A stretch of DNA of 32,000 nt, taken from contig NZ_LT934425.1 of the NCBI RefSeq assembly GCF_900232105.1, forward strand, positions 960,001 through 992,000, in the 5' to 3' direction. Source of the stretch: Candidatus Kuenenia stuttgartensis (GTDB lineage: Bacteria; Planctomycetota; Brocadiia; Brocadiales; Brocadiaceae). Each line of letters opens with the position of its first letter. Position 1 is the stretch's first letter. Positions 4,074 to 32,000 of this stretch are shown here, one piece after another. The translations under genes and the position numbers were made by a program. The notes under the pieces were generated by a model. That model was not told where the DNA came from and ran no database searches. It worked only from the letters and a program-made list of their open reading frames with translations.

Positions 4074-5114
4074 TTATCTCAGAATAAGGTACCATCGACC
4101 AAACCATGTATCCGAACCAAAGCCACCTTTCCTGCCTTCGTTTATTAGGAGCGCGAACAACAATAGAAACCATACTATGGCAGTAATTTTCCCCCGCTCT
4201 CTTTTTAAGTTCAACCCAAGGAGAATCGCTACAAGAGCATTTGCAATGTACATCAGCCGCCCTGCTGCCGCATGAATGAGGGTCATACATATTGCAAATG
4301 TGCAAAAAATCAAGGAAAACCGAAACCAAAACTCTTGTTGATCATCGGAACTTTTATTTTTTAAAAGAAAAAAAATCAACCCATTCTGCAAAACAGTAGC
4401 TGCATAGAAAAAAACATTGACCTTTCCTTTTAATTCATAAGATTCCGATCTTCGCCCAAAATCAATGCTACCCATTATACGGTTAAGATAAAAAACATAT
4501 AGCCCGACAGCAAGAAGGATAGCAATCAAGCGAATATTTGACCTCCTGGCAACAACGGCTGCAATAGCACACGGAATAACGAAAATAAAGGAGGTGTGAA
4601 TTGTTGAAGCCACTACAGCCCCTAAAAAAGGACTTAAGCCTCCTGCAACCATCATTAAAAAAACCGACAAAGCAAATCCTTGCCTTATCTGGTTGTAATA
4701 CATCTGCGTAGATAGCGTGGAATCTATGACAAAGGCAAAAAGAATGAATATCCATGCCCCTCGCGTCAATTTGTTGTTTGCGACAAGAAACATGAGCGAA
4801 CTAAAAAAAATAGTGATCCTTAACGAGGTTTCAGCACCGAAAATCTCCCCCATAAACGAGGCATATGTTGACCACAAAGGCTCCTCCAGCACATAGGACC
4901 ACCAGTCCGTCAAAATCGTAAAATTTGTTCCTTCAAAATATTTGATGTAACTTAGATCATCAGGGGCTGTATAAAGTGTACGCCTCGCCAGAATCAAAGA
5001 TACGCCGACAAAAAAGACCATCGCCAGCCATGTTGTTTGCCTCAAACCAAATAAATCCAGACGTGATGGACCGGGGTTAGCACTTTGATGATAATTTGTA
5101 GGCTTTTTAAACAT
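4074..5114 (-). CDS. EpsG-family / Wzy-like polysaccharide polymerase (polytopic membrane protein)
   Basis: The ORF track gives 4074-5279. I prefer the ATG at 5114 (MFKKPTNY...) because residues upstream of it are methyltransferase-remnant sequence. The protein has about 10 hydrophobic segments. DDLSYIKYFE...EPLW and YNQIRQGFALSVF resemble EpsG-family motifs. Confidence 0.6.
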   Translation of the reverse strand: MFKKPTNYHQSANPGPSRLDLFGLRQTTWLAMVFFVGVSLILARRTLYTAPDDLSYIKYFEGTNFTILTDWWSYVLEEPLWSTYASFMGEIFGAETSLRITIFFSSLMFLVANNKLTRGAWIFILFAFVIDSTLSTQMYYNQIRQGFALSVFLMMVAGGLSPFLGAVVASTIHTSFIFVIPCAIAAVVARRSNIRLIAILLAVGLYVFYLNRIMGSIDFGRRSESYELKGKVNVFFYAATVLQNGLIFFLLKNKSSDDQQEFWFRFSLIFCTFAICMTLIHAAAGRLMYIANALVAILLGLNLKRERGKITAIVWFLLLFALLINEGRKGGFGSDTWFGRWYLILR

Positions 5115-7526: not shown

Positions 7527-9242
7527 CCTAAATCCTGCAAACGATTTTCGCAATGCGAAAATCAGTATTTTCCACTACCAAGATTGGCAAAAAGCGATAA
7601 CAGATATCCGTTTTTTAGCAATTGTGGTAGCGCTATTGTACTACTTTAAACAAAAAGACATGGGAAATTGTCGGAAACGTGCTCTCTGATGCAATGAAAA
7701 TCAAGATAGGGATGTACTGTCTCCATCTGCGGTATACTTACCACTCTCAAAAGACTAAAAAAACGAAATACAACGTCGGTTTTCTACTGAAAAACTACAT
7801 CCAGTGACATGCGTTCCCACTTTTCCCATTCCTCCTGATGGAGAAATTTCTCCGGCAATTTTAATGTCATCTGCCGGCTTCTCTCCACCAGTTTCCCTGC
7901 CACACGGATTAACCACAGTCTCATCGTCTTTACTTCCCACTGTTGTATCACTCCACCACTGAGCAATCCCATCCACTTCAAAAGATTATACGCTAACACC
8001 GCACACTGAAATAGCGCAGCATTGGCCAAAAATTCACCCGTACGTATGTGCCCCGCATTCATCTGTCCTTTACTCTCTTCTATCAAAGTCTCGCAGGTAG
8101 CCCTCTTTCCATAACAACGATGCGCTTCCATCGGACTTAACCGCTCCGTTGTAACGTAACAAAAATACTCATACACGGACACTTCTACTAATTTCTTTTC
8201 TCTTTTGACCAATTGCCGCACTGCCACAAAACGTCTCGCACGATCCCACCCTGCACATCGATACCAAAATTCAGCCTGTTCCCATCCTGGCTCCCCTTTC
8301 ACCTCATTCCATTTCTGCCCTTCAAGCAATCCTTCCAGATTCTTCAGCTTTACCTTAATCAGATATCCCGCCAATATTGACTCAAGGTATTCAAGTAATT
8401 CTCCGGTAAAAAAACCGCTGTCTCCCCGAAATACCACCCTTACCCCCTTATTCATGTACGCCATACATTCCTTCATGAACTCTACTACTCCGTTACTCGT
8501 GTAGGCGCTTCCACAGCGGAACCAACTATGTAATACCTCCTTTGTTTCTGCAATAAATGCCATTAAGGGATGATACGCCTTCTGCCCCTTCTTGTGCGGA
8601 TTATATCCTACCTCTGCACCCTCCTGTTTCCCATATACACCATCTACGGTAGAATCAACATCTATCCATACTTCGCAAAGAGCACTCCTGAGTTTATGGC
8701 CTGATCTCACCGCACGCTTCCATATCTTTCCCCTAAACCGGTGGATCACCCCCGTCAGTTCCACTATATCTCCCTGACTCGCCAGCTTCATAATACGTCC
8801 TATCGTAGTATCTACAGGTACCTCTTTCCACCCGGACATCTTCTTCAATACCTCATCTGTACACACCTTCATCACCTCTACCATCGATGTCGCCCCTGCT
8901 ATCAACCCTATCACTACCATTTGTACCGCATCGACAAACTGATACCGGGCATTTGCTCCACGATCCTTATGGACCGCTTCATGGACTCTCTCCCGGAACA
9001 TCAGCTTACCCATAAAATTCAATACCGGTAAAAGCCCTGCATGTACCGTTAAGCCTTTCCCGCTCATCTCTGCCTTGATTTTCGGTTGTCTTTTGCTGTA
9101 TTTTTTTGCTATATTCTTCATCGAAATGGTGAATCTCCTTTCAGGTGTTTTTTGTTATCAATATACCGCCGAATACCTTGGAAATCCTACCATTTCAATC
9201 CTATTCCTGCAACAAGGCTTTGCCTTGTTTGCAGGATTTAGG
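7527..9242 (-). mobile_element. IS1380-family-like insertion sequence (1,716 bp)
   Basis: It has 16-bp perfect terminal inverted repeats, CCTAAATCCTGCAAAC (7527-7542) and GTTTGCAGGATTTAGG (9227-9242). They are flanked by the 5-bp direct repeat TTGTA (7522-7526 and 9243-9247). A single transposase ORF lies inside. Confidence 0.85.
7784..9121 (-). CDS. DDE transposase, IS1380-family-like
   Basis: 445 aa. WIDVDSTVDGVYGKQEGAEVGYNPHKKGQKAYHPLMAF and FRGDSGFFTGELLEYLE match the IS1380/IS4-superfamily pattern as I remember it. Confidence 0.8.
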   Translation of the reverse strand: MKNIAKKYSKRQPKIKAEMSGKGLTVHAGLLPVLNFMGKLMFRERVHEAVHKDRGANARYQFVDAVQMVVIGLIAGATSMVEVMKVCTDEVLKKMSGWKEVPVDTTIGRIMKLASQGDIVELTGVIHRFRGKIWKRAVRSGHKLRSALCEVWIDVDSTVDGVYGKQEGAEVGYNPHKKGQKAYHPLMAFIAETKEVLHSWFRCGSAYTSNGVVEFMKECMAYMNKGVRVVFRGDSGFFTGELLEYLESILAGYLIKVKLKNLEGLLEGQKWNEVKGEPGWEQAEFWYRCAGWDRARRFVAVRQLVKREKKLVEVSVYEYFCYVTTERLSPMEAHRCYGKRATCETLIEESKGQMNAGHIRTGEFLANAALFQCAVLAYNLLKWMGLLSGGVIQQWEVKTMRLWLIRVAGKLVERSRQMTLKLPEKFLHQEEWEKWERMSLDVVFQ

Positions 9243-16467: not shown

Positions 16468-16642
16468 ACTACAATCCATCAACTTCTTGTTTTTTATGCT
16501 CGTTTTTCAAGCTGCACAAACGTAAGGCATTAATTAAATGATGCCTACGTAAAGTTTGGAGTATTGAGTTTTTGTCATTTGAAATTGTTTTGTATTTAGA
16601 TATTCGTATTTCGAATTTGGTTGCGGCCAAAGGCCGCGCCAA
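16468..16642 (-). mobile_element. 175-bp MITE derived from the ends of the 1,700-bp IS (copy 1)
   Basis: It is the same 175-bp sequence as 17899-18073 and 24828-25002. Its first ~45 bp and last ~25 bp match the two ends of the IS at 19374-21073. Confidence 0.85.
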
Positions 16643-17642: not shown

Positions 17643-17898
17643 GTATCAATATTCTCCTTTATAACCGCCATAGCCGTACACCATCTCCACTCAGAAAAGG
17701 GGGGAAAGGAACATATTTGGGGCCAGACCTCGAATATAGAAAACAAAATTCAGCCCGCAATATCCAAAATATGAAATACCAAAACTCAAATAACAAATTT
17801 CAAATAATATTCAAAATCCAATTTTAATAATACAAGTTTTATTATTTTCACCTGCCAAAGTTATTTTTACTCAATATCTTTTATCAGTGCTTATTCGT

Positions 17899-18073
17899 AC
17901 TACAATCCATCAACTTCTTGTTTTTTATGCTCGTTTTTCAAGCTGCACAAACGTAAGGCATTAATTAAATGATGCCTACGTAAAGTTTGGAGTATTGAGT
18001 TTTTGTCATTTGAAATTGTTTTGTATTTAGATATTCGTATTTCGAATTTGGTTGCGGCCAAAGGCCGCGCCAA
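17899..18073 (-). mobile_element. 175-bp MITE (copy 2), between dehydrogenase and epimerase genes
   Basis: It looks identical by eye to copy 1. The flanks read ttattcgt^gtatatccgtgg, a relative of the catccgt^gtgaattcgtgg target. Confidence 0.85.
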
Positions 18074-18103: not shown

Positions 18104-19373
18104 TTACGCTCTTTTTACCTTATCAGAATGATTCGTATGATTCTTAATTAAATTTCTCGTATCAACGATAAGTTTTGCATTTTTTAAGATAAATTCAGGG
18201 TCGTAATCCGAGTGCTCTGTTGCGATAAGAACGGCATCATATTTAGCAAGCGTCTCTGCATGTAAAGGAACGGAGCTATTATTAAATGTGTATTTCCTCA
18301 TTTTCGGGAGAACCGGTATATACGGGTCGTTATAGTCAACATGTGCATTTTTCTCCACAAGAAGCTCCATGATCTTCAGCGAGGGTGATTCACGGGTATC
18401 GTCTATATCCTTTTTATATGAAAGCCCCAGTATTAAAATCTTTGCGCCCTTAATGCTTTTCCCTTTCTCATTAAGCGCCTCAACAGTCTTTTGAACCACA
18501 TAATAGGGCATGTTGGTATTTATTTCCCCTGCAAGCTCTATAAACCGGGTGGAAAACTCATATTCCCTCGCCTTCCAGGTCAAATAAAAGGGATCGATAG
18601 GTATGCAATGTCCCCCAAGACCAGGGCCGGGATAAAATGCCTGAAATCCAAAGGGTTTTGTCTTTGCCGCCTCTATAACTTCCCAAACGTCAATCCCCAT
18701 CCTATCAAAGAGCATCTTCAGTTCGTTCACCAGCGCTATGTTCACAGATCTATAGATATTCTCAAGTAGTTTTGTGGCCTCCGCAACTCTTGTTGAAGAA
18801 ACCGGGACGGTCTTTACCACTACCGAATCATAAAGGGCTTGTGCAACGGTAAGACAATTATCCGTATAACCGCCAACCACTTTAGGGATTGTCCTTGTTG
18901 AAAAACCCTTATTATTCGGATCTTCCCGCTCCGGTGAAAACGCAAGATAAAAATCCTCACCAGCTTTTAACCCCGACTCCTCAAGTATGGGTCTCATGTC
19001 CTCATCCGTAGTCCCTGGATACGTAGTGGATTCAAGGACAATAAGCTGTCCCTTGCGAAGATTTCCGGCAATAGTCTTTGTTGTGTTAAAGACATATGAC
19101 ATATCAGGCTCACGGTATTTGTTCAGCGGCGTCGGAACACAGATGATGATACAGTCCATAGCTGATAACTTCGAGAAATCCGTGGTGGGGGTGAAACGCG
19201 ATCCGGCGTCCGTGATACGTGAACTATCAATATGTTTGATATAGCTTTTGCCCTGACTCAGTAATTTTACCTTTTCAGGGTCAATGTCGAAGCCTGTCAC
19301 CTGAAACCCTGCCTTGCAGAATTCAATGACCAGAGGCAATCCAACATAGCCGAGGCCGATAATGCCAATGTGT
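18104..19373 (-). pseudogene. nucleotide-sugar 6-dehydrogenase (WbpA/TviB/Ugd family), 5'-truncated by IS insertion
   Basis: The 411-aa ORF contains [15 protein letters not shown]. Reading past the annotated Met gives [18 protein letters not shown] (a Rossmann GxGxxG), which abuts the IS end at 19374. Confidence 0.85.
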
Positions 19374-21073
19374 ACTACTATCCATCAATTTCTTGTTTTT
19401 TATGCGTGTTTTTCATGCCGCCATTTCCGTAAGTGCTTTAATATCAAGGGCTGAAGCGGTCATCAGTGAACAAGAGAACTTCTGGCCTTTCTCCGTCAAA
19501 ACATAGCGGTTGGCCCTCGGAACTTTGCGGATTAGACCGTGTGCCCGCAGCATCTTTATCCGTCGGGTCGTTCGTCCGGAATATTTCTTTTGCTGATCCT
19601 TGCCGGATTGTTCGGATTCCCGGTAAAGCCACTTACGCAAATCATGGTTGCGGAATCCATTTATCGCGTTTTCGCCTTTGGACAGGAACATCAGCATCTG
19701 GTAATCATCCTGCTGCCAGGGATTCAAACCTCGATACCTCTTGCCCTCTTTGACAACCTTGTTACAAGCGCTGCTCACCACTTCTTTCAGTTTCTCCTCT
19801 ACCTGAGCCGCCGCCAAAGCATCCCCATAACGATCATTGCATTGTTGGCTCACCTCACACCGTCGATGAAGATCGCTTACGCCCTTACGCATCTTCTGCC
19901 ATGACGCCGGTTTGCCTTCATCATCATTGGGACTCCGAAAGACCTTAAAGTCCCGCGTATTATTGATCGTTGTCTCAATACGCAAGAGACTACCGCTCTT
20001 GTTATACATCTTCACTGAATTATAATTCACACTGTGCTTGACCCGTATACCTTCATAGCGTCTTCGATAGTCGCTGATAACCTCATCAGGGGCAGCGCCT
20101 GCAAGGTTACGCCTACCCAAATACTTCATCACCGAAGAACTGTCGCAAACCCGCATCGCATGATGAACAAACGATGGAAACAACTCCTCCAATGCCTCAA
20201 CCGATTTAAACATGATGTCCGTCGCCCACTCCGTCTCATCCGCAGACCAGTAATACTCCGGTTCCAACGGACGAAGAATCTGCGACAATGCCGGGCAACT
20301 GCCCAACGCAAGCCCGTTCAGCAGCTTCGCCCAGTCAGTCTTAAGCTGCTCATGGAGCAGAACCTGCGCAGCCGCAATATCCTCTATACGCACAAAACAG
20401 TTGCCGTCCTTAACATAATCAATACCTTGCTTCTGAAGTTGCCGCTCCAGCCAATGACGACCATTGAGACAAATGAAAATATTAAACGGCGCCCAACTCT
20501 GGATACGAACATGACCAAAACCAAACACTGGATCGTTAAAATAATGATACACAAAGACACACTTGCGGGGCGCCATTACCAACTCGAGCTTCTTGCTGGC
20601 CTTGTTGCCCTTGACCATCGGCGCAATACAAGGCTCTACCACACTCAACAGGCAGATGGAACCTTCCGTAATCCTCTTATCCGCCGCGATCTGGCGAGCC
20701 AACTTCTCCTTATCAACACCGCTGCTCATCAAATACCGCACCTCGATACCCAAATCTTTCGCCCGCGATTCACAACTGTCTCGCACCTGTGCCGTAAGCC
20801 CATTGACCCAACCGGAAAAATCCTTAAGCAGAATTCTCGCTTGGTTCATGAATGTTCCCATCCCACGCTCACTGGCCAACCACCGCAATGTCCCGCGAAA
20901 ACGAATCCTGTCCAGACCGCTTATTGCACCCACGATCCTGTCTCGATATAATTCCATCAACTTATTCATAAGTAGTGTCCTCCAAATTGTCTGATTACTA
21001 TTTACGAGGATACTACTATACTTTATAATAAACTAAAAATCACCTTTTTGGTTGCGGCCAAAGGCCGCGCTAG
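19374..21073 (-). mobile_element. atypical 1,700-bp insertion sequence, copy 1 (no TIR, no TSD)
   Basis: The boundaries are set by in-frame restoration of the dehydrogenase gene and by comparison with an empty paralogous target at 24616-24630. The ends read ACTACTATCCATC... and ...GGTTGCGGCCAAAGGCCGCGCTAG. Confidence 0.85.
19413..20969 (-). CDS. 518-aa IS-encoded protein, putative transposase of unrecognised family
   Basis: It is the only long ORF of the element and is identical in all three copies. An RBS GGAGGA lies upstream. The C-terminus is basic and winged-helix-like (RRIKMLRAHGLIRKVPRANRYVLTEKG). Confidence 0.8.
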   Translation of the reverse strand: MNKLMELYRDRIVGAISGLDRIRFRGTLRWLASERGMGTFMNQARILLKDFSGWVNGLTAQVRDSCESRAKDLGIEVRYLMSSGVDKEKLARQIAADKRITEGSICLLSVVEPCIAPMVKGNKASKKLELVMAPRKCVFVYHYFNDPVFGFGHVRIQSWAPFNIFICLNGRHWLERQLQKQGIDYVKDGNCFVRIEDIAAAQVLLHEQLKTDWAKLLNGLALGSCPALSQILRPLEPEYYWSADETEWATDIMFKSVEALEELFPSFVHHAMRVCDSSSVMKYLGRRNLAGAAPDEVISDYRRRYEGIRVKHSVNYNSVKMYNKSGSLLRIETTINNTRDFKVFRSPNDDEGKPASWQKMRKGVSDLHRRCEVSQQCNDRYGDALAAAQVEEKLKEVVSSACNKVVKEGKRYRGLNPWQQDDYQMLMFLSKGENAINGFRNHDLRKWLYRESEQSGKDQQKKYSGRTTRRIKMLRAHGLIRKVPRANRYVLTEKGQKFSCSLMTASALDIKALTEMAA

Positions 21074-21117
21074 GCCTTCTTTGATTTAATTTTTTCGATT
21101 ATACTGTAAGAGTTCAT
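21074..21117 (-). pseudogene. first 14 codons of the IS-split dehydrogenase gene
   Basis: ATG AAC TCT TAC AGT ATA ATC GAA AAA ATT AAA TCA AAG AAG GC joins in frame to A CAC ATT GGC... at 19373. Confidence 0.75.
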
Positions 21118-21470: not shown

Positions 21471-21805
21471 CAAATTTCAAATAATTTCAAAGATCAAATT
21501 CCCGAAATCCAAAACAGTATTATTCTGATGATATACCAGTAATGTATAGGAAATTCAAAGTTGCCACTAAGACACCAAGGTTTTTCTTTGTGGCTTTGTG
21601 TCTTCGTGGCGAAAAAGTCGTCGAAGGCCTAATTTACAAGGACTTCGTCCCTCTCAGTTACATGAATAACTTATGTAACAAGTGAACGGATACAGCATAA
21701 ATCTGGCAGTCGGCAATTTGCCGGGCGTCGAGTGCTACGGCATCTTGGAAAATTCCAGGGCTTTATGCCATACGCAGCCAAAAAGAGTTTAACCACAAAG
21801 GGCTT

Positions 21806-21879
21806 GGCGCGGCCTTTGGCTGAAACCAAATTCGAAATACGAATATCGAAATACGAAACAAATTCAAATGATAAAAAAC
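21806..21879 (+). mobile_element. partial copy of the 175-bp MITE in opposite orientation, interrupted by another MITE
   Basis: CTTGGCGCGGCCTTTGGCTGAAACCAAATTCGAAATACGAATATCGAAATACGAAACAAATTCAAATGATAAAAAAC is the reverse complement of the hairpin half of the MITE. Homology resumes at 22030-22052 (...CAAATACTCCAAACT). Confidence 0.6.
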
Positions 21880-22029
21880 GTAATACTTTAGTTTTTTGAA
21901 AAATTCCAATAATAACATTGTTTTGCCGCACGGTGTAGGGGCGAAGCATTTGCATGTCCGGGCATGAACGCATTTATGCCAGTTATTGCAAATGCTTCGC
22001 CCCTACGGTCTCAAAAAACTAAATTGTTA
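21880..22029. mobile_element. second member of the GTAA(C/T)ACTTTAG...TIR MITE family, different core
   Basis: The ends are GTAATACTTTAGTTTTTTGAAAAA and TCAAAAAACTAAATTGTTAC. The core holds an inner palindrome GTAGGGGCGAAGCATTTGCA...TGCAAATGCTTCGCCCCTAC. Confidence 0.6.
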
Positions 22030-22594: not shown

Positions 22595-22747
22595 GTAACA
22601 CTTTAGTTTTTTGAAAAAGTAAGGGCGAAGCATTTGCCAGTTTAGGTATGAACACATTTATGACAATTTACAGCAAATGCTTCGCCCCCCCTACACTATG
22701 CGGCAAACATCGCTAATGTTAGAATTTTTAAAAAAACTAACGCGGTA
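22595..22747. mobile_element. third, degenerate member of the same MITE family
   Basis: The left TIR GTAACACTTTAGTTTTTTGAAAAA is intact and the right end is degenerate (TTTTTAAAAAAACTAACGCGGTAAAG). The core again contains GGGCGAAGCATTTGC...GCAAATGCTTCGCCC. Confidence 0.45.
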
Positions 22748-22832: not shown

Positions 22833-23041
22833 ATCCGGTGTCCGTGATCCGGAAACTATCAATATGTTTTATGTAGCTTTTGCCCTGGCTCAACAATTTT
22901 ACCTTTTCAGGACCAATGTCGAAGCCGGTAACCTGAAACCCGGCCTTGCAGAATTCAATGACCAGTGGCAATCCAACATTAGCGGAGTCCGATAACACCA
23001 ATATGCGACTTCTTTGATTTAATTTTTTCGATTAGTTCCAT
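22833..23041 (-). pseudogene. degenerate duplicate of the dehydrogenase gene 5' end (uninterrupted by IS)
   Basis: MELIEKIKSKKSHIGVIG... is followed by a 1-nt insertion and then ...[40 protein letters not shown]. This matches 19160-19373 plus 21074-21100. Homology ends near 22833. Confidence 0.75.
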
Positions 23042-23795: not shown

Positions 23796-24188
23796 TCATT
23801 GGGCTAACTGCCTTGCCTCCTCAATAACCTTAAGAATCGAAGGTTCGACAGCGCCCGCTACATTGTCCGGAATGTGCTTGTGATGAGGGAAATTCTCAAG
23901 TCCTGGAAAATGCGGCGTGTTGTCATATCGAAAGACAAGCTTGTTTTGCTCGTCCTGAAAATGATAGCGATAGCCAAGGCGCCTGGGTCGACCGGCTTCA
24001 CCAACAACTGCTTCATTCAACTCCAGCATATGTCCCCTCCGGAAACGCACTCGTATCCGCAAGTTCACACGACTAGCCGCCACAATCTCCTCTTCGTAAC
24101 GCTCCACATAGGCGCCTTCCGCCTGCCGAACTGCGACTTCAACTTCCCTAAGATATCTTGATAGAAAATCAAGCAATATGCTACACAT
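23796..24188 (-). CDS. DUF6516/TumE-like putative toxin (family recalled from memory)
   Basis: 130 aa with YRYHFQDEQNKLVFRYDNTPHFPGLENFPHHKH. Its ATG overlaps the stop of the upstream small gene (CATGTGTAG). Confidence 0.65.
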   Translation of the reverse strand: MCSILLDFLSRYLREVEVAVRQAEGAYVERYEEEIVAASRVNLRIRVRFRRGHMLELNEAVVGEAGRPRRLGYRYHFQDEQNKLVFRYDNTPHFPGLENFPHHKHIPDNVAGAVEPSILKVIEEARQLAQ

Positions 24189-24399
24189 GTGCCTCTATTT
24201 CAAGCCTGATCGTAACATAATGTTGATAGTCATTCGCCCATTCGACGAAATCCTCGGAGTCTTCCAACTGTCCCTTGCTAAACTTGTCGAAAAACTCCTC
24301 CGATGTCATACGGTATCGATTTTCAAAAATGCTGAGATGCTTGGCTATAGCTACAAGAGCGTCTACAGGCGAATCATACTCAATTCTTTGTTTTCTCAT
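24181..24399 (-). CDS. small acidic partner protein (putative antitoxin), 72 aa from ATG at 24399
   Basis: An RBS GGAGG lies 6 nt upstream of MRKQRIEYDSPVDALVAIAKHLSIFENRYRMTSEEFFDKFSKGQLEDSEDFVEWANDYQHYVTIRLEIEAHV. It is translationally coupled to 23796-24188. Confidence 0.6.
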   Translation of the reverse strand: MRKQRIEYDSPVDALVAIAKHLSIFENRYRMTSEEFFDKFSKGQLEDSEDFVEWANDYQHYVTIRLEIEAHV

Positions 24400-24432
24400 A
24401 TTTCCTCCTTCCGAAGTATTTGGGGTCACGAA

Positions 24433-24559
24433 GTATTTGTGGTCAGATCTTGAATATAGAATACAAAATTCAGCCTGCATCTTTTTAAGTATTCTTTGTA
24501 ATTATTTTTGCCACCAGATGAACACTGATAAAAATTTCTTTATAACCTCTTATAAATAA
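24433..24559 (-). repeat. ~127-bp block shared upstream of two unrelated TA operons (second copy 30642-30767; partial copy 17706-17757)
   Basis: The two copies align by eye with about 5 mismatches. Both begin 15-35 bp upstream of the first gene of a minus-strand TA pair. Confidence 0.75.
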
Positions 24560-24827
24560 CTACGGATGAACTCTGATGAACTCTGATAAAGAGGTTAATA
24601 ATATTGATCCGTGTTCATCCGTGTGAATTCGTGGTTAAGTTTTAGTACACTATTCTTTTCCATTCGAGCTTCGGTTTGCCAAAATTTACTATAATACCTT
24701 TGTCAACCACGGATGAACACTGATGAACACTGATAAAAATTTCTTTATAACCTCTTATAAATAACTACAGATGAACACTGAGAAATACGGTTAAAGAGGT
24801 TGATAATATTGATCCGTGTTCATCCGT

Positions 24828-25002
24828 ACTACAATCCATCAACTTCTTGTTTTTTATGCTCGTTTTTCAAGCTGCACAAACGTAAGGCATTAATTAAATG
24901 ATGCCTACGTAAAGTTTGGAGTATTGAGTTTTTGTCATTTGAAATTGTTTTGTATTTAGATATTCGTATTTCGAATTTGGTTGCGGCCAAAGGCCGCGCC
25001 AA
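24828..25002 (-). mobile_element. 175-bp MITE (copy 3) at a unit junction of the tandem array
   Basis: catccgt[ACTACAATCC...GGCCGCGCCAA]gtgaattc. Confidence 0.85.
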
Positions 25003-25197
25003 GTGAATTCGTGGTTAAATTTTAGTACACTATTCTTTTCCATTCGAGCTTCGGGTTGCCAAAATTTACTATAATACCTTTGTTAACCACGGATGAACAC
25101 CGATGAACACTGATAAAAATTTCTTTATAACCTCTTATAAATAACTACAGATGAACTCTGAGAAATACGGTTAAAGAGGTTGATAATATTGATCCGT

Positions 25198-26897
25198 ACT
25201 ACTATCCATCAATTTCTTGTTTTTTATGCGTGTTTTTCATGCCGCCATTTCCGTAAGTGCTTTAATATCAAGGGCTGAAGCGGTCATCAGTGAACAAGAG
25301 AACTTCTGGCCTTTCTCCGTCAAAACATAGCGGTTGGCCCTCGGAACTTTGCGGATTAGACCGTGTGCCCGCAGCATCTTTATCCGTCGGGTCGTTCGTC
25401 CGGAATATTTCTTTTGCTGATCCTTGCCGGATTGTTCGGATTCCCGGTAAAGCCACTTACGCAAATCATGGTTGCGGAATCCATTTATCGCGTTTTCGCC
25501 TTTGGACAGGAACATCAGCATCTGGTAATCATCCTGCTGCCAGGGATTCAAACCTCGATACCTCTTGCCCTCTTTGACAACCTTGTTACAAGCGCTGCTC
25601 ACCACTTCTTTCAGTTTCTCCTCTACCTGAGCCGCCGCCAAAGCATCCCCATAACGATCATTGCATTGTTGGCTCACCTCACACCGTCGATGAAGATCGC
25701 TTACGCCCTTACGCATCTTCTGCCATGACGCCGGTTTGCCTTCATCATCATTGGGACTCCGAAAGACCTTAAAGTCCCGCGTATTATTGATCGTTGTCTC
25801 AATACGCAAGAGACTACCGCTCTTGTTATACATCTTCACTGAATTATAATTCACACTGTGCTTGACCCGTATACCTTCATAGCGTCTTCGATAGTCGCTG
25901 ATAACCTCATCAGGGGCAGCGCCTGCAAGGTTACGCCTACCCAAATACTTCATCACCGAAGAACTGTCGCAAACCCGCATCGCATGATGAACAAACGATG
26001 GAAACAACTCCTCCAATGCCTCAACCGATTTAAACATGATGTCCGTCGCCCACTCCGTCTCATCCGCAGACCAGTAATACTCCGGTTCCAACGGACGAAG
26101 AATCTGCGACAATGCCGGGCAACTGCCCAACGCAAGCCCGTTCAGCAGCTTCGCCCAGTCAGTCTTAAGCTGCTCATGGAGCAGAACCTGCGCAGCCGCA
26201 ATATCCTCTATACGCACAAAACAGTTGCCGTCCTTAACATAATCAATACCTTGCTTCTGAAGTTGCCGCTCCAGCCAATGACGACCATTGAGACAAATGA
26301 AAATATTAAACGGCGCCCAACTCTGGATACGAACATGACCAAAACCAAACACTGGATCGTTAAAATAATGATACACAAAGACACACTTGCGGGGCGCCAT
26401 TACCAACTCGAGCTTCTTGCTGGCCTTGTTGCCCTTGACCATCGGCGCAATACAAGGCTCTACCACACTCAACAGGCAGATGGAACCTTCCGTAATCCTC
26501 TTATCCGCCGCGATCTGGCGAGCCAACTTCTCCTTATCAACACCGCTGCTCATCAAATACCGCACCTCGATACCCAAATCTTTCGCCCGCGATTCACAAC
26601 TGTCTCGCACCTGTGCCGTAAGCCCATTGACCCAACCGGAAAAATCCTTAAGCAGAATTCTCGCTTGGTTCATGAATGTTCCCATCCCACGCTCACTGGC
26701 CAACCACCGCAATGTCCCGCGAAAACGAATCCTGTCCAGACCGCTTATTGCACCCACGATCCTGTCTCGATATAATTCCATCAACTTATTCATAAGTAGT
26801 GTCCTCCAAATTGTCTGATTACTATTTACGAGGATACTACTATACTTTATAATAAACTAAAAATCACCTTTTTGGTTGCGGCCAAAGGCCGCGCTAG
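25198..26897 (-). mobile_element. atypical 1,700-bp IS, copy 2
   Basis: gatccgt[ACTACTATCC...GGCCGCGCTAG]gtgaatttg. The encoded protein is identical to copy 1. Confidence 0.85.
25237..26793 (-). CDS. 518-aa IS-encoded protein (copy 2)
   Basis: The translation is identical to 19413-20969. Confidence 0.8.
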   Translation of the reverse strand: MNKLMELYRDRIVGAISGLDRIRFRGTLRWLASERGMGTFMNQARILLKDFSGWVNGLTAQVRDSCESRAKDLGIEVRYLMSSGVDKEKLARQIAADKRITEGSICLLSVVEPCIAPMVKGNKASKKLELVMAPRKCVFVYHYFNDPVFGFGHVRIQSWAPFNIFICLNGRHWLERQLQKQGIDYVKDGNCFVRIEDIAAAQVLLHEQLKTDWAKLLNGLALGSCPALSQILRPLEPEYYWSADETEWATDIMFKSVEALEELFPSFVHHAMRVCDSSSVMKYLGRRNLAGAAPDEVISDYRRRYEGIRVKHSVNYNSVKMYNKSGSLLRIETTINNTRDFKVFRSPNDDEGKPASWQKMRKGVSDLHRRCEVSQQCNDRYGDALAAAQVEEKLKEVVSSACNKVVKEGKRYRGLNPWQQDDYQMLMFLSKGENAINGFRNHDLRKWLYRESEQSGKDQQKKYSGRTTRRIKMLRAHGLIRKVPRANRYVLTEKGQKFSCSLMTASALDIKALTEMAA

Positions 26898-27102
26898 GTG
26901 AATTTGTGGTTAAATTTTAGTACACCAATCTTTTCCATTCGAGCTTCGGGTTGCCAAAATTTACTATAATACCTTTGTTAACCACGGATGAACACTGATG
27001 AACACTGATAAAAATTTCTTTATAACCTCTTATAAATAACTACAGATGAACTCTGAGAAATACGGTTAAAGAGGTTGATAATATTGATCCGTGTTCATCC
27101 GT

Positions 27103-28802
27103 ACTACTATCCATCAATTTCTTGTTTTTTATGCGTGTTTTTCATGCCGCCATTTCCGTAAGTGCTTTAATATCAAGGGCTGAAGCGGTCATCAGTGAAC
27201 AAGAGAACTTCTGGCCTTTCTCCGTCAAAACATAGCGGTTGGCCCTCGGAACTTTGCGGATTAGACCGTGTGCCCGCAGCATCTTTATCCGTCGGGTCGT
27301 TCGTCCGGAATATTTCTTTTGCTGATCCTTGCCGGATTGTTCGGATTCCCGGTAAAGCCACTTACGCAAATCATGGTTGCGGAATCCATTTATCGCGTTT
27401 TCGCCTTTGGACAGGAACATCAGCATCTGGTAATCATCCTGCTGCCAGGGATTCAAACCTCGATACCTCTTGCCCTCTTTGACAACCTTGTTACAAGCGC
27501 TGCTCACCACTTCTTTCAGTTTCTCCTCTACCTGAGCCGCCGCCAAAGCATCCCCATAACGATCATTGCATTGTTGGCTCACCTCACACCGTCGATGAAG
27601 ATCGCTTACGCCCTTACGCATCTTCTGCCATGACGCCGGTTTGCCTTCATCATCATTGGGACTCCGAAAGACCTTAAAGTCCCGCGTATTATTGATCGTT
27701 GTCTCAATACGCAAGAGACTACCGCTCTTGTTATACATCTTCACTGAATTATAATTCACACTGTGCTTGACCCGTATACCTTCATAGCGTCTTCGATAGT
27801 CGCTGATAACCTCATCAGGGGCAGCGCCTGCAAGGTTACGCCTACCCAAATACTTCATCACCGAAGAACTGTCGCAAACCCGCATCGCATGATGAACAAA
27901 CGATGGAAACAACTCCTCCAATGCCTCAACCGATTTAAACATGATGTCCGTCGCCCACTCCGTCTCATCCGCAGACCAGTAATACTCCGGTTCCAACGGA
28001 CGAAGAATCTGCGACAATGCCGGGCAACTGCCCAACGCAAGCCCGTTCAGCAGCTTCGCCCAGTCAGTCTTAAGCTGCTCATGGAGCAGAACCTGCGCAG
28101 CCGCAATATCCTCTATACGCACAAAACAGTTGCCGTCCTTAACATAATCAATACCTTGCTTCTGAAGTTGCCGCTCCAGCCAATGACGACCATTGAGACA
28201 AATGAAAATATTAAACGGCGCCCAACTCTGGATACGAACATGACCAAAACCAAACACTGGATCATTAAAATAATGATACACAAAGACACACTTGCGGGGC
28301 GCCATTACCAACTCGAGCTTCTTGCTGGCCTTGTTGCCCTTGACCATCGGCGCAATACAAGGCTCTACCACACTCAACAGGCAGATGGAACCTTCCGTAA
28401 TCCTCTTATCCGCCGCGATCTGGCGAGCCAACTTCTCCTTATCAACACCGCTGCTCATCAAATACCGCACCTCGATACCCAAATCTTTCGCCCGCGATTC
28501 ACAACTGTCTCGCACCTGTGCCGTAAGCCCATTGACCCAACCGGAAAAATCCTTAAGCAGAATTCTCGCTTGGTTCATGAATGTTCCCATCCCACGCTCA
28601 CTGGCCAACCACCGCAATGTCCCGCGAAAACGAATCCTGTCCAGACCGCTTATTGCACCCACGATCCTGTCTCGATATAATTCCATCAACTTATTCATAA
28701 GTAGTGTCCTCCAAATTGTCTGATTACTATTTACGAGGATACTACTATACTTTATAATAAACTAAAAATCACCTTTTTGGTTGCGGCCAAAGGCCGCGCT
28801 AG
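27103..28802 (-). mobile_element. atypical 1,700-bp IS, copy 3
   Basis: catccgt[ACTACTATCC...GGCCGCGCTAG]gtgaattc. It has one synonymous difference from copy 1 (A28264 vs G20535). Confidence 0.85.
27142..28698 (-). CDS. 518-aa IS-encoded protein (copy 3)
   Basis: The translation is identical to 19413-20969. Confidence 0.8.
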   Translation of the reverse strand: MNKLMELYRDRIVGAISGLDRIRFRGTLRWLASERGMGTFMNQARILLKDFSGWVNGLTAQVRDSCESRAKDLGIEVRYLMSSGVDKEKLARQIAADKRITEGSICLLSVVEPCIAPMVKGNKASKKLELVMAPRKCVFVYHYFNDPVFGFGHVRIQSWAPFNIFICLNGRHWLERQLQKQGIDYVKDGNCFVRIEDIAAAQVLLHEQLKTDWAKLLNGLALGSCPALSQILRPLEPEYYWSADETEWATDIMFKSVEALEELFPSFVHHAMRVCDSSSVMKYLGRRNLAGAAPDEVISDYRRRYEGIRVKHSVNYNSVKMYNKSGSLLRIETTINNTRDFKVFRSPNDDEGKPASWQKMRKGVSDLHRRCEVSQQCNDRYGDALAAAQVEEKLKEVVSSACNKVVKEGKRYRGLNPWQQDDYQMLMFLSKGENAINGFRNHDLRKWLYRESEQSGKDQQKKYSGRTTRRIKMLRAHGLIRKVPRANRYVLTEKGQKFSCSLMTASALDIKALTEMAA

Positions 28803-28950
28803 GTGAATTCGTGGTTAAATTTTAGTACACTATTCTTTTCCGTTCGAGCTTCGGTTTGCCAAAATTTACTATAATACCTTTGTTAACCACGGATGAACAC
28901 CGATGAACACTGATAAAAATTTCTTTATAACCTCTTATAAATAACCACGG

Positions 28951-29737
28951 ATGTACAGTAGAGTAGAAACCAGACGACAAGAACTTAGGCAGAAGTTTGT
29001 TTTCTCTGTTTGCTGGCTGGTTTCCCGCCAGTGCCACCATATCTCCGCCATATACTTATCATCTGCCCCCCTCGTCAAACCGTGCATGCGATTTTCCCGC
29101 ACACGGCTTTCCGACAGTCTTCTTCTTAAGCTTTCACAGGTTGTCTGGCAGAAACATATTTTGTCGGGTCTATTAGTCCATATCTATTGACTAATTCCTT
29201 AAACGCTCCTCGATTATAGAGCTTGCTCCTGCGCTGACTTTTCCTCTTATAATATCTCGTCAATCTCCTGAAAAGATAATATCGTAGGTCTCTTCTTCCT
29301 GCTTGGCTTTTCGATATAGTTTACGCTGAAAGTCTCGGACTCTTTCCTCATCGCTCTTTTGCGATTTCGGTATTGATAGTATGCGTTACGGTCATCAACC
29401 TGAATAATGAGACCTCCCAAGTTCATTTATATACCTTTTACAGTCATACCGTCACTCTCAACTCCGACGACACCGCATAGTTCTACCGTTTGTCTCTTGC
29501 TACCTATGCGATTACAGATTTCACCCTCTCTGGGAGGCTCATCTATCGTATTTTTAGCGTAACTAAGCCTGCGTGTTCGCTTGCACTACGGTCTGACTGC
29601 TCGCTACAGGGAACTCGAACGTATTCATCGCTGTTTACGTCCTCCCGTGAGGCTTTCTGCCTCTTTCACTACCGCCCGAACGGTCAATTGGCGGGTTGGA
29701 TTTGCACCAACTGATATATATACGCTTCTTGGCGTAC
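28951..29737 (-). mobile_element. ORF-deleted group II intron remnant (boundaries approximate)
   Basis: Domain V-like AAGCCGTGTGCGGGAAAATCGCATGCACGGTTT lies on the minus strand at 29077-29109, with an AGC triad, a GAAA loop and a 2-nt bulge. RT remnants include the N-terminal FQRKLYRKAKQEE (~29293-29335) joined to the C-terminal LYNRGAFKELVNRYGLIDPTKYV. A candidate 5' end is GTACGCC at 29737. Confidence 0.6.
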
Positions 29738-30627: not shown

Positions 30628-31036
30628 GGTTTGTCAAGCAAATATTTGGGGTCAGACCTTGAATATAGAATACAAAATTCAGCCCGCATCTTTTTAAGTA
30701 TTCTTTGTAATTATTTTTGCCACCAGATGAACACTGCTAAAAATTTCTTTATAACCTCTTATAAATATAGCCAAACAAATATGATTTTAGGAATTTGGCA
30801 ATAAAATGGCTTTCTAAAAAACAGATTTATTTGACTAAGCATACTATACAACCCCCTTTCCGGAAAGATTTCAACAAAATCCTTATTTTAAGCGGGTTTC
30901 CACAAATTCAAAATAATATGTAGTCGCAGAATAAATGGCCTATTTATTAATACAAATCCTTTATAACCCTATAAATACTGACTTGACAAAATATTTTATT
31001 AATGATAGTGTAGTCAAAGAATATTGGGACTACATT

Positions 31037-32000
31037 ATGCACCTTACTTATAGCGATTCTAAATACAAAGGGAAAACCTATAAATCTTACTCTATTGCCG
31101 AATCCTACAGGGATGGCAAAAAGGTCAGAAAAAGAATACTTTGGCCCATCGGGAAACTTTCCGATATTCAAGCCGAGCAAATCAAACTGATATGTAAAAC
31201 AGTTGAAAACACAGATCAATTGCAGACTCAGCTCAAAGACGTTGCAGTCCTGGAAAGCAGGGCATATCTCGATATAGCCGTTGTTAATGAGTTGTGGAAC
31301 CAGTGGCAGCTTGATCAGGCTTTTGACTACGATGTCACTGCAGGCGCCCTTCCTACCAATATGATTGCAAAGATACTGACTATTAACAGGTGCACCGATC
31401 CGTGTTCTCATTATTCCATTCCTCATTGGGCGAAAAAGAGCGCGCTGGAGGACATTCTTAAAATTGATCTTTCAGGCCTAAATGACGATAAAATCTATTA
31501 TGAATTAGATAAAATACACAAAAACAAAATATCTATAGAGAACCACCTTTTTAACCAAACCTTCTGGAAACGTCCGGAATCCTATAAATTTATCAACTAC
31601 GACCTAACTACTTCCTACTTTGTGGGATATAACTGTGATCTATCGGCATTTGGCAAGGGCAAAATAGAGTGTCATGGCAGGCGGCAGGTCTTACTGGGTG
31701 TTCTTATCAACTCTGAGGGATATCCTTTCAAATGGGATGTATTCCCCGGGAACACCGCTGAGGTAAAAACCCTCAAACAGAATATCAATGCCTGTAAAAC
31801 CAGATTCAAATTGACTGATAAAAACGTCACCCTTGTATTTGACAGAGGCATAATCTCTGAGGACAATGCCAATTTGATAGAAGAAGCCAAACTCAAATAC
31901 ATCTCGGCATTGGATAGAAATCAGATACCCTCTTGCGGTGTCAGTTTAAAGTCTCTTAATGGGTTATCCATAGAAGATAAGGACGCCTCCGATATACCTA
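31037..32000 (+). CDS. IS1634-family-like DDE transposase, 3'-partial (runs off the window; absent from the ORF track)
   Basis: My own translation from ATG 31037 is MHLTYSDSKYKGKTYKSYSIAESYRDGKKVRKRILWPIGKLSD...INYDLTTSYFVG...ECHGRRQVLLGVLINSEGYPFKWDVFPGNTAEVKTL...VFDRGIIS. It is open to position 32000. Confidence 0.75.
   Translation, partial: MHLTYSDSKYKGKTYKSYSIAESYRDGKKVRKRILWPIGKLSDIQAEQIKLICKTVENTDQLQTQLKDVAVLESRAYLDIAVVNELWNQWQLDQAFDYDVTAGALPTNMIAKILTINRCTDPCSHYSIPHWAKKSALEDILKIDLSGLNDDKIYYELDKIHKNKISIENHLFNQTFWKRPESYKFINYDLTTSYFVGYNCDLSAFGKGKIECHGRRQVLLGVLINSEGYPFKWDVFPGNTAEVKTLKQNINACKTRFKLTDKNVTLVFDRGIISEDNANLIEEAKLKYISALDRNQIPSCGVSLKSLNGLSIEDKDASDIP

Follow-up and report, generated by a model that had tools for sequence, protein, structure and literature searches.

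The 32,000-nucleotide stretch of DNA analysed here (the window), from the anammox bacterium Candidatus Kuenenia stuttgartensis, contains a tandem array of 205-bp units that has been interrupted three times by mobile elements. In all likelihood the array is the older structure, its unit junctions are a preferred target of an unusual insertion sequence (IS) and of related MITEs, and the three insertions are recent; for the 518 amino acid candidate transposase encoded by the IS we infer a mechanism, set out below. Five head-to-tail units, two of them partial, span positions 24517–28952, which upholds the layout given in the first-pass annotation. One of the four unit junctions is empty, one carries a 175-bp MITE and two carry a 1700-bp IS, all in a single orientation. 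The relevant features are listed here, with units compared with those of L011, the same locus in another Kuenenia assembly:

16468–16642, minus strand: MITE copy 1, at a weak site (minus strand ACAGGGAATATC^ACAAAG)
17899–18073, minus strand: MITE copy 2, at a canonical site (minus strand AGCCACGGATATAC^ACGAAT)
19374–21073, minus strand: IS copy A, with the same sequence as copy B, at a non-canonical site
21804–21887, plus strand: isolated MITE remnant, hairpin end only (89% identity), oppositely oriented and adjoining AACCACAAAGGGC
24517–24622: U0, partial unit (106 nt of the 205-bp unit), adjoining a toxin-antitoxin promoter region; 0/106 differences from unit f
24622/24623, plus strand: empty junction, GTTCATCCGT^GTGAATTCGTGGTT
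24613–24636, minus strand: target site between U0 and U1, unoccupied, AACCACGAATTCAC^ACGGATGAAC
24623–24827: U1, full-length unit (205 bp); 0/205 differences from unit e
24828–25002, minus strand: IS-derived MITE, 175 bp; its joined flanks equal the empty junction (100/100)
25003–25197: U2, 195-bp unit without the 10 nt adjoining the IS end; 0/195 differences from unit d
25198–26897, minus strand: IS copy B, 1700 bp, with an ORF at 25237–26793 (518 aa)
26898–27102: U3, full-length unit; 1/205 differences from unit b
27103–28802, minus strand: IS copy C, 1700 bp, with an ORF at 27142–28698; one SNP relative to copy B
28803–28952: U4, partial unit ended by an intron; 3/155 differences from unit a
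28953–29737 (boundaries approximate), minus strand: ORF-less group II intron of ~790 nt (Rfam RF00029)

The array is far beyond chance. Units within it differ from one another at 4–10 positions (2–6%), and Tandem Repeats Finder, run on the insertion-free allele, gives a period of 205 with 5.3 copies, 96% matches and a score of 1977; the same program reports no array in the window, because the inserts break it up. Each unit is non-coding and consists of an imperfect hairpin of ~140 nt and a spacer of ~65 nt. The imperfect palindrome described in the first-pass annotation is borne out by arms of 37–39 nt that are 81–82% complementary and by the folding of one unit as single-stranded DNA (−31 kcal/mol, z = −4.06), which was equalled in none of 200 shuffles.

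That the array is older than the insertions is shown by the other Kuenenia assembly (L011/L021, BQMU01000046.1), in which the same locus has 5.3 tandem units and no inserts. The window units match their counterparts there one-to-one with 0, 0, 0, 1 and 3 differences, and joining the flanks of the array inserts rebuilds the empty junction (100/100), with a 10-nt gap at U2. Since the insertion-free allele matches unit by unit and the joined flanks restore the empty junction, the insertions are recent, separate events that entered an older array without target duplication, their independence having been claimed at first reading; the 13 IS copies examined, with at most one SNP per 1700 bp among them, are also far closer to each other than are the units. 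The 10-bp indel noted earlier turned out to be part of something larger. The 10 nt are indeed missing from U2 and are present in unit d of L011, but there is no simple alternative insertion point: the opposite side of the IS beside U2 is the canonical site of a different unit, and the insertion is therefore associated with a 215-bp deletion, amounting to one unit plus 10 nt, that extends from one potential target site to another and is bounded by two C^ACGGAT positions.

Two other accounts of the array's history have to be considered. Tandem duplication of unit-plus-IS blocks, by unequal crossing-over between IS copies or units, would explain the regular spacing of the blocks (1895 and 1905 bp), the single SNP between the two array IS copies and a unit number that varies between strains (the window has lost one unit, and there are shorter alleles). 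However, the near-identity of the array IS copies says nothing either way, since IS copies at other genomic locations are just as alike. The two units beside the IS copies, U2 and U3, show differences at 4 of 195 positions in addition to the 10-nt gap. The third insert, moreover, is a MITE of another lineage that is identical to MITEs at unrelated sites, and every window unit pairs with a different unit of the insertion-free array (0–3 differences), a unit-by-unit match that contradicts block duplication and leaves it highly improbable. Wrongful expansion of one unit and one IS during assembly deserves mention since such repeats are hard to assemble and many public contigs end at the IS, but it is scarcely credible: the SNPs that distinguish the units match those of the second strain in the same order, and contig OCTL01000029.1 repeats the whole 7.1-kb arrangement in identical order with 0 mismatches, in keeping with a sound assembly. 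This contig is recognisable as a separate sequence record by its 8 small indels and its split reading frames, which are probably long-read errors.

The array inserts share their orientation, the hairpin-bearing end of each facing higher plus-strand coordinates, in agreement with the first-pass annotation. IS copy B has neither inverted repeats nor a target duplication. A GC hairpin lies 3 nt from its end at 26897, an obvious hairpin being present at one element end only, and its non-coding ends measure only ~105 and 39 nt. An AACCAAA box, resembling the ACRRA half-sites of the target (see below), adjoins the hairpin at the element's own end. Two insert lineages can be told apart, the MITE (ends TTG.../...ATTGTAGT) and the IS (ends CTA.../...ATAGTAGT), whose hairpin ends agree over 24 nt and whose opposite ends agree over 48 nt. 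The array MITE is 100% identical to the two further MITEs at 16468–16642 and 17899–18073. A UDP-glucose/GDP-mannose dehydrogenase gene has IS copy A at its 5' end; L011 has this gene intact, and the joined flanks of copy A align with it without gaps. Neither a circle junction nor head-to-tail copies of the element were seen.

The targets share a direct-repeat motif, (A/G)CCAC-RRA-N3-4-C^AC-RRA on the minus strand, with two half-sites in direct orientation that are spaced by about one helical turn. The unit junctions (AACCAC-GAA-TTCAC^ACGGA) are a strong instance of this preferred site, and the asymmetry of the motif accounts for the single orientation of the inserts. The motif recurs at 10 further Kuenenia sites and with 22 elements, both ends of which were identified, from varied unrelated metagenomes. 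Among 93 distinct left flanks, ACRRA-N3-4-C is found at fixed register in 39 (0.32 expected) and the last flank base is C in 90. The sequence of the U0/U1 target site is also present at seven unit junctions of the insertion-free allele, and across 23 kb of that allele the strict motif occurs at these seven junctions only, four of which are occupied in other strains, although the loci examined for occupancy are biased toward IS neighbourhoods. Specificity is a preference, not a rule, as IS copy A, MITE copy 1 and the insertions at L003, L004 and L008 are at sites that match the motif poorly.

Could DNA structure, such as single-stranded hairpins or REP-like palindromes, be the primary determinant, with the sequence motif secondary? 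The first-pass annotation had proposed a hairpin target, and there is something to be said for it: the unit itself folds into a long, significant hairpin, an inverted partner is significant (p ≤ 0.01) at 9 of 37 reconstructed sites, well above chance, the non-canonical sites L003 and L004 fall within other palindromes, in the loop or the stem, inverted pairs are the usual form of AACCAC-type motifs in other phyla, and extruded or single-stranded DNA is the substrate to be expected of a Rep-like nickase. With just those 9 sites having a significant partner, though, a hairpin is common but not required; 27 of the 37 lack a partner arm even at p ≤ 0.05, and what the sites have in common is the direct-repeat motif, relative to which, rather than to the stem, the cut position is set. 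Every unit also carries an inverted copy of the motif (AACCACGGATGAAC^ACTGAT, plus strand) that is never occupied and that differs from the occupied copy by sequence, not structure. We therefore regard structure as an unlikely primary determinant, albeit one to be taken seriously. Somewhat less likely still is that occupancy reflects regional clustering more than site preference, whether by local hopping or because selection is relaxed in this strain-variable polysaccharide/toxin-antitoxin island. Six elements fall inside a 12.4-kb part of the window, which may reflect local hopping, CP049055.1 has three IS copies in 22 kb, and two DDE-type IS elements and the group II intron are found in the region too; yet the regional insertions are not scattered, four of the six being at the canonical motif, three of them at the same nucleotide of successive units, and unrelated metagenomes use the same motif. 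RNA-guided targeting would have a precedent in IS110/IS1111 elements, which use bridge or seek RNAs and likewise home to REP and attC repeats, and it would fit oriented insertion into repeats, the lack of target duplication and the structured non-coding end. It is nevertheless very unlikely, given that a DEDD transposase domain is absent, the non-coding ends are so short, no Rfam family other than the intron was detected and sequence-identical IS copies occupy targets that differ at the variable positions (ACGGAACAC, ACAAAGGGC, ACAGATTAC and ACGAATTCAC).

The 518 amino acid protein matched no transposase family and no Pfam or NCBIfam family beyond a weak C-terminal winged helix, and no HUH, Y1, Y2 or DEDD domain was found in it. 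Confident structure models (pLDDT 92.7 and 94.7) predict two five-strand modules of TBP-like topology, and viral TATA-binding proteins were matched at E = 4.5e-4 (probability 0.99). Using published placements of the Rep_trans motifs (PMC4797284, PMC5714925), the invariant residues D20, Y322-x-K324 and L328-x-R330-x-E332 fall on the predicted strands that carry motifs N', III and IV, with motifs I and II matched in part only. The search results follow the same pattern as that reported for Rep-Arvir proteins (PMC13107129). Comparison with RepC by hhalign was not significant (probability 0.2), and Foldseek retrieved neither RepDE nor RepSTK1 and no PDB entry at E ≤ 1e-3. Motif and topology thus provide the grounds for a hypothetical link to Rep_trans. 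The element is unclassified, and its transposase may be of a new kind.

A mechanism can be proposed in which this single protein would be the transposase. Recognition of the ACRRA half-sites would fall to its C-terminal winged helix, and its N-terminal TBP-like domain would be a metal-dependent tyrosine nickase of the Rep_trans type (Asp20, Glu247/Asp251, Tyr322, Glu332), cutting and rejoining one strand at C^A in the manner of rolling-circle or single-strand transposons. As to the history of the array, the comparisons above show that three junctions were struck separately in a recent transposition burst, in an orientation set by the asymmetric motif; insertion was precise and free of target duplication, one event being associated with the 215-bp loss. 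The array acts as a multi-copy landing pad simply by repeating a good target.

The group II intron that ends U4 matches RF00029 at 28958–29111 (47.9 bits against a gathering score of 40); the same intron in L011 scores 37.7 bits against RF02003 (domains 1–4), short of the gathering score (49). It had been described as a remnant, but at ~790 nt it looks complete and is not a mere stump. Two unrelated mobile elements do occur in the same repeat, as suggested, with the caveat that the intron lies at about nt 50 of the unit, away from the IS position, and that the intron/unit junction belongs to a larger duplicated block, being found in a second array as well, and is therefore one old event.

Targeting of extragenic repeats by IS elements is already known, whereas this element is not. 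The REP/BIME-targeting elements IS1397 and ISKpn1 (IS3 family) and ISPpu9, ISPpu10, ISPa11 and IS621-type elements (IS110 family) (Tobes and Pareja 2006, PMC1525189) likewise insert in one fixed orientation, and at one fixed position, into an extragenic repeat able to form a hairpin, with several repeat copies occupied and repeat clusters offering multiple targets. The candidate Kuenenia transposase, however, is unrelated to DDE/DEDD enzymes, the insertions lack target duplications, the feature recognised is a direct-repeat motif rather than a palindrome, and the 205-bp unit is much longer than classical REPs, AT-rich and low-copy.

IS1111-attC elements and group IIC-attC introns both make oriented insertions into the structured repeats of integron cassette arrays. 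The Kuenenia locus resembles this arrangement in having an IS and a group II intron, both oriented, in one class of repeat within an array-like region rich in toxin-antitoxin cassettes. Here, though, the two occupy different unit positions, and no integron integrase or attC core site was found among the ORFs and repeats examined. The HUH single-strand or rolling-circle transposons IS200/IS605, IS91/ISCR and Helitrons also lack terminal inverted repeats and target duplications, have a hairpin near one end, are strictly oriented beside a short conserved sequence and give rise to small non-autonomous derivatives and element-adjacent deletions. The Kuenenia element differs from these in lacking an HUH/Y1/Y2 domain, in a predicted catalytic fold that is TBP-like rather than RRM-like and in a two-part direct-repeat target of ~20 bp.

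The protein itself invites comparison with the Rep_trans rolling-circle initiators (pT181 RepC/RepD, PF02486; PMC4797284) and archaeal Rep-Arvir proteins (PMC13107129). Predicted common features are two five-strand beta modules of TBP-like topology followed by a winged helix, an invariant Asp on strand 1 and, in module 2, Y-x-K on the fourth strand and L-x-R-x-E on the fifth; a DNA substrate comprising a hairpin and adjoining repeat-like binding sites is putatively shared as well. Against Rep_trans, the 518 amino acid protein has no sequence-level or Foldseek match, and its motifs I and II are partial. Its gene differs from those of both groups in its setting, which is a 1.7-kb multicopy element of the chromosome and not a plasmid, a phage or an element that conjugates.

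Sequence reading of positions 24000–29500, combined with a repeat search, resolves an intergenic array of 205 bp units that is flanked by toxin–antitoxin operons and interrupted by three inserts, all in the same orientation. Two of these inserts are copies of a 1700 bp insertion sequence (IS) encoding a 518 amino acid protein and the third is a 175 bp MITE that shares the ends of the IS; further copies of both lie elsewhere in the window.

The array and related features in the window
16468–16642, MITE
17899–18073, MITE
19374–21073, IS copy A
19413–20969, minus strand, 518-codon ORF of IS copy A
21804–21887, degenerate solo element end
24517–24622, partial unit U0
24623–24827, unit U1
24828–25002, 175 bp insert (MITE)
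25003–25197, unit U2 (195 bp)
25198–26897, 1700 bp insert (IS copy B)
25237–26793, minus strand, 518-codon ORF of IS copy B
26898–27102, unit U3
27103–28802, second 1700 bp insert (IS copy C)
27142–28698, minus strand, 518-codon ORF of IS copy C
28803–28952, partial unit U4
28953–29737, minus strand, ORF-less group II intron (~790 nt)
28958–29111, minus strand, group II intron domains V–VI (Rfam RF00029, 47.9 bits against a gathering score of 40)

At the U0/U1 boundary the two units join directly (GTTCATCCGT^GTGAATTCGTGGTT, with ^ marking the insertion point), and alignment and tabulation of the units reveal 4–10 differences between one unit and another. Tandem Repeats Finder detects no 205 bp array in the window because the inserts interrupt it; an insertion-free allele from another assembly returns a period of 205, 5.3 copies, 96% matches and a score of 1977. 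The array of units with three inserts and one empty junction, as described in the first-pass annotation, is borne out by the sequence reading and repeat search.

To place the insertions relative to the array, the same locus was retrieved from other assemblies via the flanking toxin genes. In BQMU01000046.1 there is no insert anywhere in the interval, and the units of this insertion-free allele (a–f) can be paired with those of the window: U0, U1 and U2 are identical to f, e and d (0 differences each), U3 differs from b at one position and U4 from a at three. The window is without unit c and without nt 1–10 of unit d, a gap that coincides exactly with IS copy B. When the flanks of the MITE or of IS copy C are joined, the empty junction is restored (100/100), and the joined flanks of IS copy A give an ungapped alignment to the intact dehydrogenase gene of another strain. 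The existence of an insertion-free allele with corresponding units, together with joined flanks that equal the empty junction, rules out duplication of a unit-plus-insert block. Misassembly is likewise ruled out, by OCTL01000029.1, which matches the window arrangement across 7.1 kb with 0 mismatches (it has eight small indels and disrupted reading frames, which resemble long-read error). The imperfect 9–10 nt repeats flanking each insert pre-exist in the empty site, and target duplication is therefore rejected. Thirteen IS copies, three in the window and ten in the Candidatus Kuenenia stuttgartiensis complete genome CP049055.1 (where the 518 amino acid protein is encoded identically at many sites), differ from one another by a single SNP or none over 1700 bp, and the window MITEs (n = 3) are all identical. 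The empty allele, the unit correspondences and the joined flanks uphold the earlier proposal of a landing pad filled by independent insertions: the array is older than the recent transposition burst, and the three array inserts are separate events.

At least three alleles of the array locus are found among public Kuenenia assemblies. One allele has unit positions 11–106 next to the IS, directly beside the toxin–antitoxin promoter region; another is a recombinant of this array and a second, paralogous array located past the right end of the window; and on one contig the second IS runs on into an unrelated locus (comparison loci L012 1–340, L013 1–335, L017 1–305, L014 1–1100 and L022 13452–15200). 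One junction of the second array is MITE-filled in five assemblies and empty in BQMU01000046.1. The array locus is apparently missing from CP049055.1, where the flanking TumE and DUF3368 proteins were not found. At IS copy B, the flank at the hairpin end of the element is the canonical site ending unit b, and the other flank begins with nt 11 of unit d, where C^ACGGAT is again found. The accompanying loss of 215 bp fits two insertions followed by recombination of the IS copies, and it also fits a deletion beside the IS, made by the element itself and reaching the next target in cis. The locus, in a region of polysaccharide-biosynthesis and toxin–antitoxin genes, is a strain-variable mobile-DNA hotspot and a driver of strain-level variation, with one insertion associated with unit loss.

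Several other features of the region can be recorded here. A UDP-glucose/GDP-mannose dehydrogenase gene, intact in the other strain (437 amino acids), is here interrupted at its 5′ end by IS copy A (19339–19374 and 21074–21100), and the start of a decayed paralogous dehydrogenase gene lies at 22833–23000 (compared region 22833–23040). A sequence of ~125 nt is shared upstream of different toxin–antitoxin operons (24431–24558, 30640–30767 and 17713–17759; copies 96% identical) and is fused to the last partial unit of the array, and a 17 nt tandem duplication (CGAAGTATTTGGGGTCA ×2, 24412–24445) just 5′ of the antitoxin start may be an operator. A second repeated palindrome, GTAGGGGCGAAGCATTTGC ... 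GCAAATGCTTCGCCCCTAC, has two window copies (21935–22010 and 22619–22690); in CP049055.1 the loop of a palindrome of this type holds one IS copy (locus L003, ~2850–2950 and 4597–4650). The region also holds two unrelated DDE-type IS elements: a DDE_Tnp_1_4 element (445 amino acids; 7784–9121, minus strand) and an open frame running off the window end (31038–32000, plus strand), which weak matches to counterpart genes in L022–L024 mark as a putative DDE_Tnp_1 (IS4/IS1634-like) protein.

What the insertion sites have in common emerges when the ten CP049055.1 and six window copies are oriented by the transposase gene.

Examples of target flanks
...AACCACGGAACAC / IS / ACGGAATAC...
...AACCACAGATTAC / IS / ACAGATTAA...
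...AACCACAAAGGGC / IS / ACAAAGACT...
...AACCACGAATTCAC / IS / ACGGATGAAC... (array)

The target comprises two imperfect direct repeats, AC-R-R-A-N3–4-C, with a spacing of 9–10 bp and mostly following (A/G)CC, and the element enters between the two repeats at C^A; the full motif, (A/G)CCAC-RRA-N3–4-C^AC-RRA, lies on the minus strand in the array. Scanning metagenomes with 24 nt of the hairpin end of the element identified at least 120 contigs from many environments. Among the matches listed, the last left-flank base is C in 90 of 93 distinct flanks, ACRRA-N3–4-C is present in register in 39 of the 93 distinct left flanks (0.32 expected from shuffles), and the right flank starts ACRRA in almost all of the 22 elements with both ends found. 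The strict motif is confined, over 23 kb of the insertion-free allele, to the seven unit junctions, four of which are occupied in other strains. What makes the array a landing pad is that a near-ideal target is re-formed at every junction, and the inserts have a single orientation because the motif is asymmetric. An inverted copy of the motif within each unit, ...GAAC^ACTGAT, breaks the ACRRA rule and is never occupied.

Occupancy also differs between junctions. The two that are never seen occupied (U0/U1 and the last of the second array) read AAACTTAACC and the four seen occupied all read AAATTTAACC (24609–24612 versus 25019–25022, 26914–26917 and 28819–28822; L011, the insertion-free allele, 6545 and 9554). 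Junction c/d of the empty allele also reads AAATTTAACC, its occupancy being unscorable in the window, where unit c is absent. A toxin–antitoxin promoter region adjoins both of the never-occupied junctions, and the split could reflect a weaker target, selection or chance (4 versus 2). The local GC skew of insertion flanks tracks gene orientation, with no consistent replication-strand signal. Beyond Kuenenia, a genome-collection scan (which returned no Kuenenia record) found 13 occurrences of the exact 21-mer AAAWTTTAACCACRAATTCAC in distant phyla against a roughly estimated ~1 expected, on contigs (L029–L041) from Saprospiraceae, Pyrinomonadaceae, Methylacidiphilum, Kaistella, Brocadiaceae and others. 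In most cases it forms the 5′ half of an inverted pair, a palindrome that ends ...GTGAATTCGTGGTT and lies just 3′ of genes.

Targeting of a hairpin had been suggested in the first-pass annotation, and that idea is only partly supported. A single unit folds as an imperfect ~140 nt hairpin (−31 kcal/mol, z = −4.06) with the insertion point 14 nt into its 5′ arm, nine of 37 reconstructed empty sites have an inverted target partner no more than 200 nt away (p ≤ 0.01), which clearly exceeds chance, and two non-canonical sites fall within other palindromes. In 27 of the 37 sites, however, the partner arm is missing even at p ≤ 0.05. We conclude that the common denominator of the sites is the sequence motif, for which structure-prone repeats are a frequent habitat, and that a hairpin is not required.

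The element itself has no terminal inverted repeats. Its hairpin end consists of three variable nucleotides, a GC hairpin (GCGGCC-TTT-GGCCGC) and then AACCAAA, and its other end reads ...GATGGATWGTAGT; joined ends would read ...GGATAGTAGT/CTAGCGCGG, and no circle or head-to-tail junctions were present in the loci examined. The hairpin plus AACCAAA layout is kept, with other stems, in relatives with 40% and 33% protein identity (L163 1–60; L164 ~440–480), and the end is exactly conserved in at least 120 metagenome contigs from many habitats (L042–L121); the same MITE family, 176 nt long, is also widespread. The protein belongs to a very large family (one search gave 4,521 matches and a second gave 5,502 clusters at 50% identity), the members of which are labelled only ‘hypothetical protein’ or ‘ArsR family regulator’. 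Pfam and NCBIfam transposase models give no match to it, only a weak C-terminal winged helix being seen; searches with the protein likewise gave no match to Y1 HUH (PF01797), Y2 HUH (PF04986) or Rep-helicase, and the DEDD domains PF01548 and PF02371 are absent from the protein and from 73 relatives. Literature searches on the hairpin sequence and on a Rep_trans-type transposase found nothing. The element is unclassified and is the most interesting content of the locus, and its protein may represent a new transposase class.

AlphaFold models of the protein (pLDDT 92.7 overall, 94.7 for residues 1–383) predict two five-strand modules with the strand–helix order of TATA-binding protein (TBP) and pseudo-twofold symmetry.

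Predicted strands of the 518 amino acid protein
Module 1, residues 12–27, 103–122, 127–146, 150–157 and 164–169
Module 2, residues 240–254, 298–304, 307–314, 317–324 and 328–335

Foldseek returned nothing significant against the PDB, with TBPs only at low rank; against viral models (BFVD) it returned TBP-fold proteins (E = 4.5e-4, probability 0.99).

These predictions invite comparison with the Rep_trans proteins, the pT181-type rolling-circle initiators, which have just this kind of sheet, with the catalytic tyrosine on strand 10 and three carboxylates on strands 1, 6 and 11 (PMC4797284). The motifs of these enzymes are N′ (D), I (RxD), II (T/SxY/ExG), III (YxKxxE) and IV (W/LxRxE) (PMC5714925), which sit on strands 1, 6, 9, 10 and 11, respectively. 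Of the invariant or near-invariant residues of the IS family, the models would place D20 on strand 1 and, within module 2, E247/D251 on the first strand, G307/R309 on the third, K320-x-Y322-x-K324 on the fourth and L328-x-R330-x-E332 on the fifth. Motifs N′, III and IV thus appear to be matched in both sequence and predicted position, motifs I and II only loosely, their only counterparts being E247/D251 and G307/R309. Pfam searches at E ≤ 10 with ten diverse members found neither Rep_trans (PF02486) nor DUF7845 (PF25227), and an hhalign comparison of pT181 RepC with the family profile did not reach significance (probability 0.2); a Rep_trans homologue search recovered only close staphylococcal relatives, too shallow for a better profile. 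The behaviour of the IS protein in the structure searches is the one described for archaeal Rep-Arvir proteins, distant Rep_trans relatives with a winged helix (PMC13107129). On balance we lean slightly towards the hypothesis that the IS protein is a Rep_trans-like tyrosine nickase, which is the best one at hand.

Insertion is precise and oriented, occurring at C^A between two ACRRA half-sites without target duplication, and the MITE, which shares only the element ends, is mobilised in trans. In the mechanism proposed here, the winged helix would read the ACRRA half-sites and the similar AACCAAA box beside the element’s own hairpin, and a dimer or pseudo-dimeric saddle would bring Tyr322 to the C^A step. 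Cutting and rejoining of a single strand would go through a 5′-phosphotyrosine link, as in rolling-circle/single-strand transposition, with the second strand synthesised by the host. With a Rep-like enzyme, the link to hairpin-prone DNA and the deletion beside the IS would also be accounted for. The broader proposal, to which we give an even chance, is that the array is a target ladder for a very large unrecognised IS/MITE superfamily (>5,500 clusters at 50% identity) with a TBP-fold, Rep_trans-like tyrosine nickase plus winged helix, homing to ACRRA repeats in iteron-like tandem arrangement, which occur widely in the intergenic DNA of many phyla. If true, the second, non-HUH class of rolling-circle nucleases would have its first transposon family, and transposons would have arisen from both known classes of rolling-circle nickase; thousands of genes now called ‘hypothetical’ or ‘ArsR-like’ could be given a new annotation, and an enzyme with precise, one-orientation integration at a ~20 bp motif, without duplication, might be of practical interest. 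The locus illustrates how mobile DNA is trapped by a tandem array in which a good target recurs; its matched empty and filled sites define the element ends to the nucleotide, reveal the two-part direct-repeat target and provide information for biochemical testing of the candidate transposase class.

The last unit of the array is cut off by a group II intron, as noted earlier and now confirmed by the match to RF00029; domains I–IV score 37.7 bits against RF02003, below the gathering score of 49. At ~790 nt there is no room for an ORF and the intron is therefore ORF-less. A 99% identical partial copy heads the second array and is likewise joined to unit position 51. The two copies were compared at 28953–29737 of the window and at 8254–8757 and 10609–11551 of L021 (BQMU01000046.1), and each follows a UPF0175/DUF3368 toxin–antitoxin pair. 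The duplicated intron/unit junction therefore indicates segmental duplication of toxin–antitoxin pair, intron and unit array, and it goes back to a single old insertion of the intron at an opposite-strand motif of the AACCAC type.

It is well documented that IS1111-attC elements and group IIC introns both use integron attC sites. An integron array was considered here in view of the toxin–antitoxin cassettes, palindromes and group II intron, and was rejected: none of the 18 window ORFs scanned encodes an integrase and there are no attC cores (RYYYAAC / GTTRRRY), the 3′ arm of the unit being GTGGTTAAC or GTGGTTGAC as opposed to the attC core GTTRRRY. Homing of IS elements to REP/BIME repeats is well documented too (PMC1525189), and the array resembles these in being extragenic, regular and able to form stem-loops. 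REP/BIME palindromes, however, are short (~20–40 nt), GC-rich and present in many tens to hundreds of copies per genome, whereas the unit here is 205 bp with a ~140 nt AT-rich hairpin, and its junction sequence is confined to two arrays in the ~130 kb of Kuenenia DNA examined. The unit is thus too long, AT-rich and low in copy number to be a classical REP; as for a RAYT (Y1 HUH), Y1_Tnp is matched by none of the 18 window ORFs scanned. Unlike IS110/IS1111 elements, the IS is missing a DEDD transposase and has non-coding ends of only ~105 and 39 nt, and identical copies occupy targets that differ at variable positions, contrary to the guide-RNA expectation for IS110/IS1111. IS200/IS605 elements have no inverted repeats and no target duplication, carry subterminal hairpins at both ends and insert 3′ of a fixed tetra- or pentanucleotide. 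In the IS described here, inverted repeats and duplication are absent, a hairpin is seen at one end only and the flanking C (90 of 93 among the matches listed) is conserved within a longer two-part motif. Homing of IS elements to repeats is already known; what differs here is the element and its enzyme, the direct-repeat target and the conservation of that target across environments.
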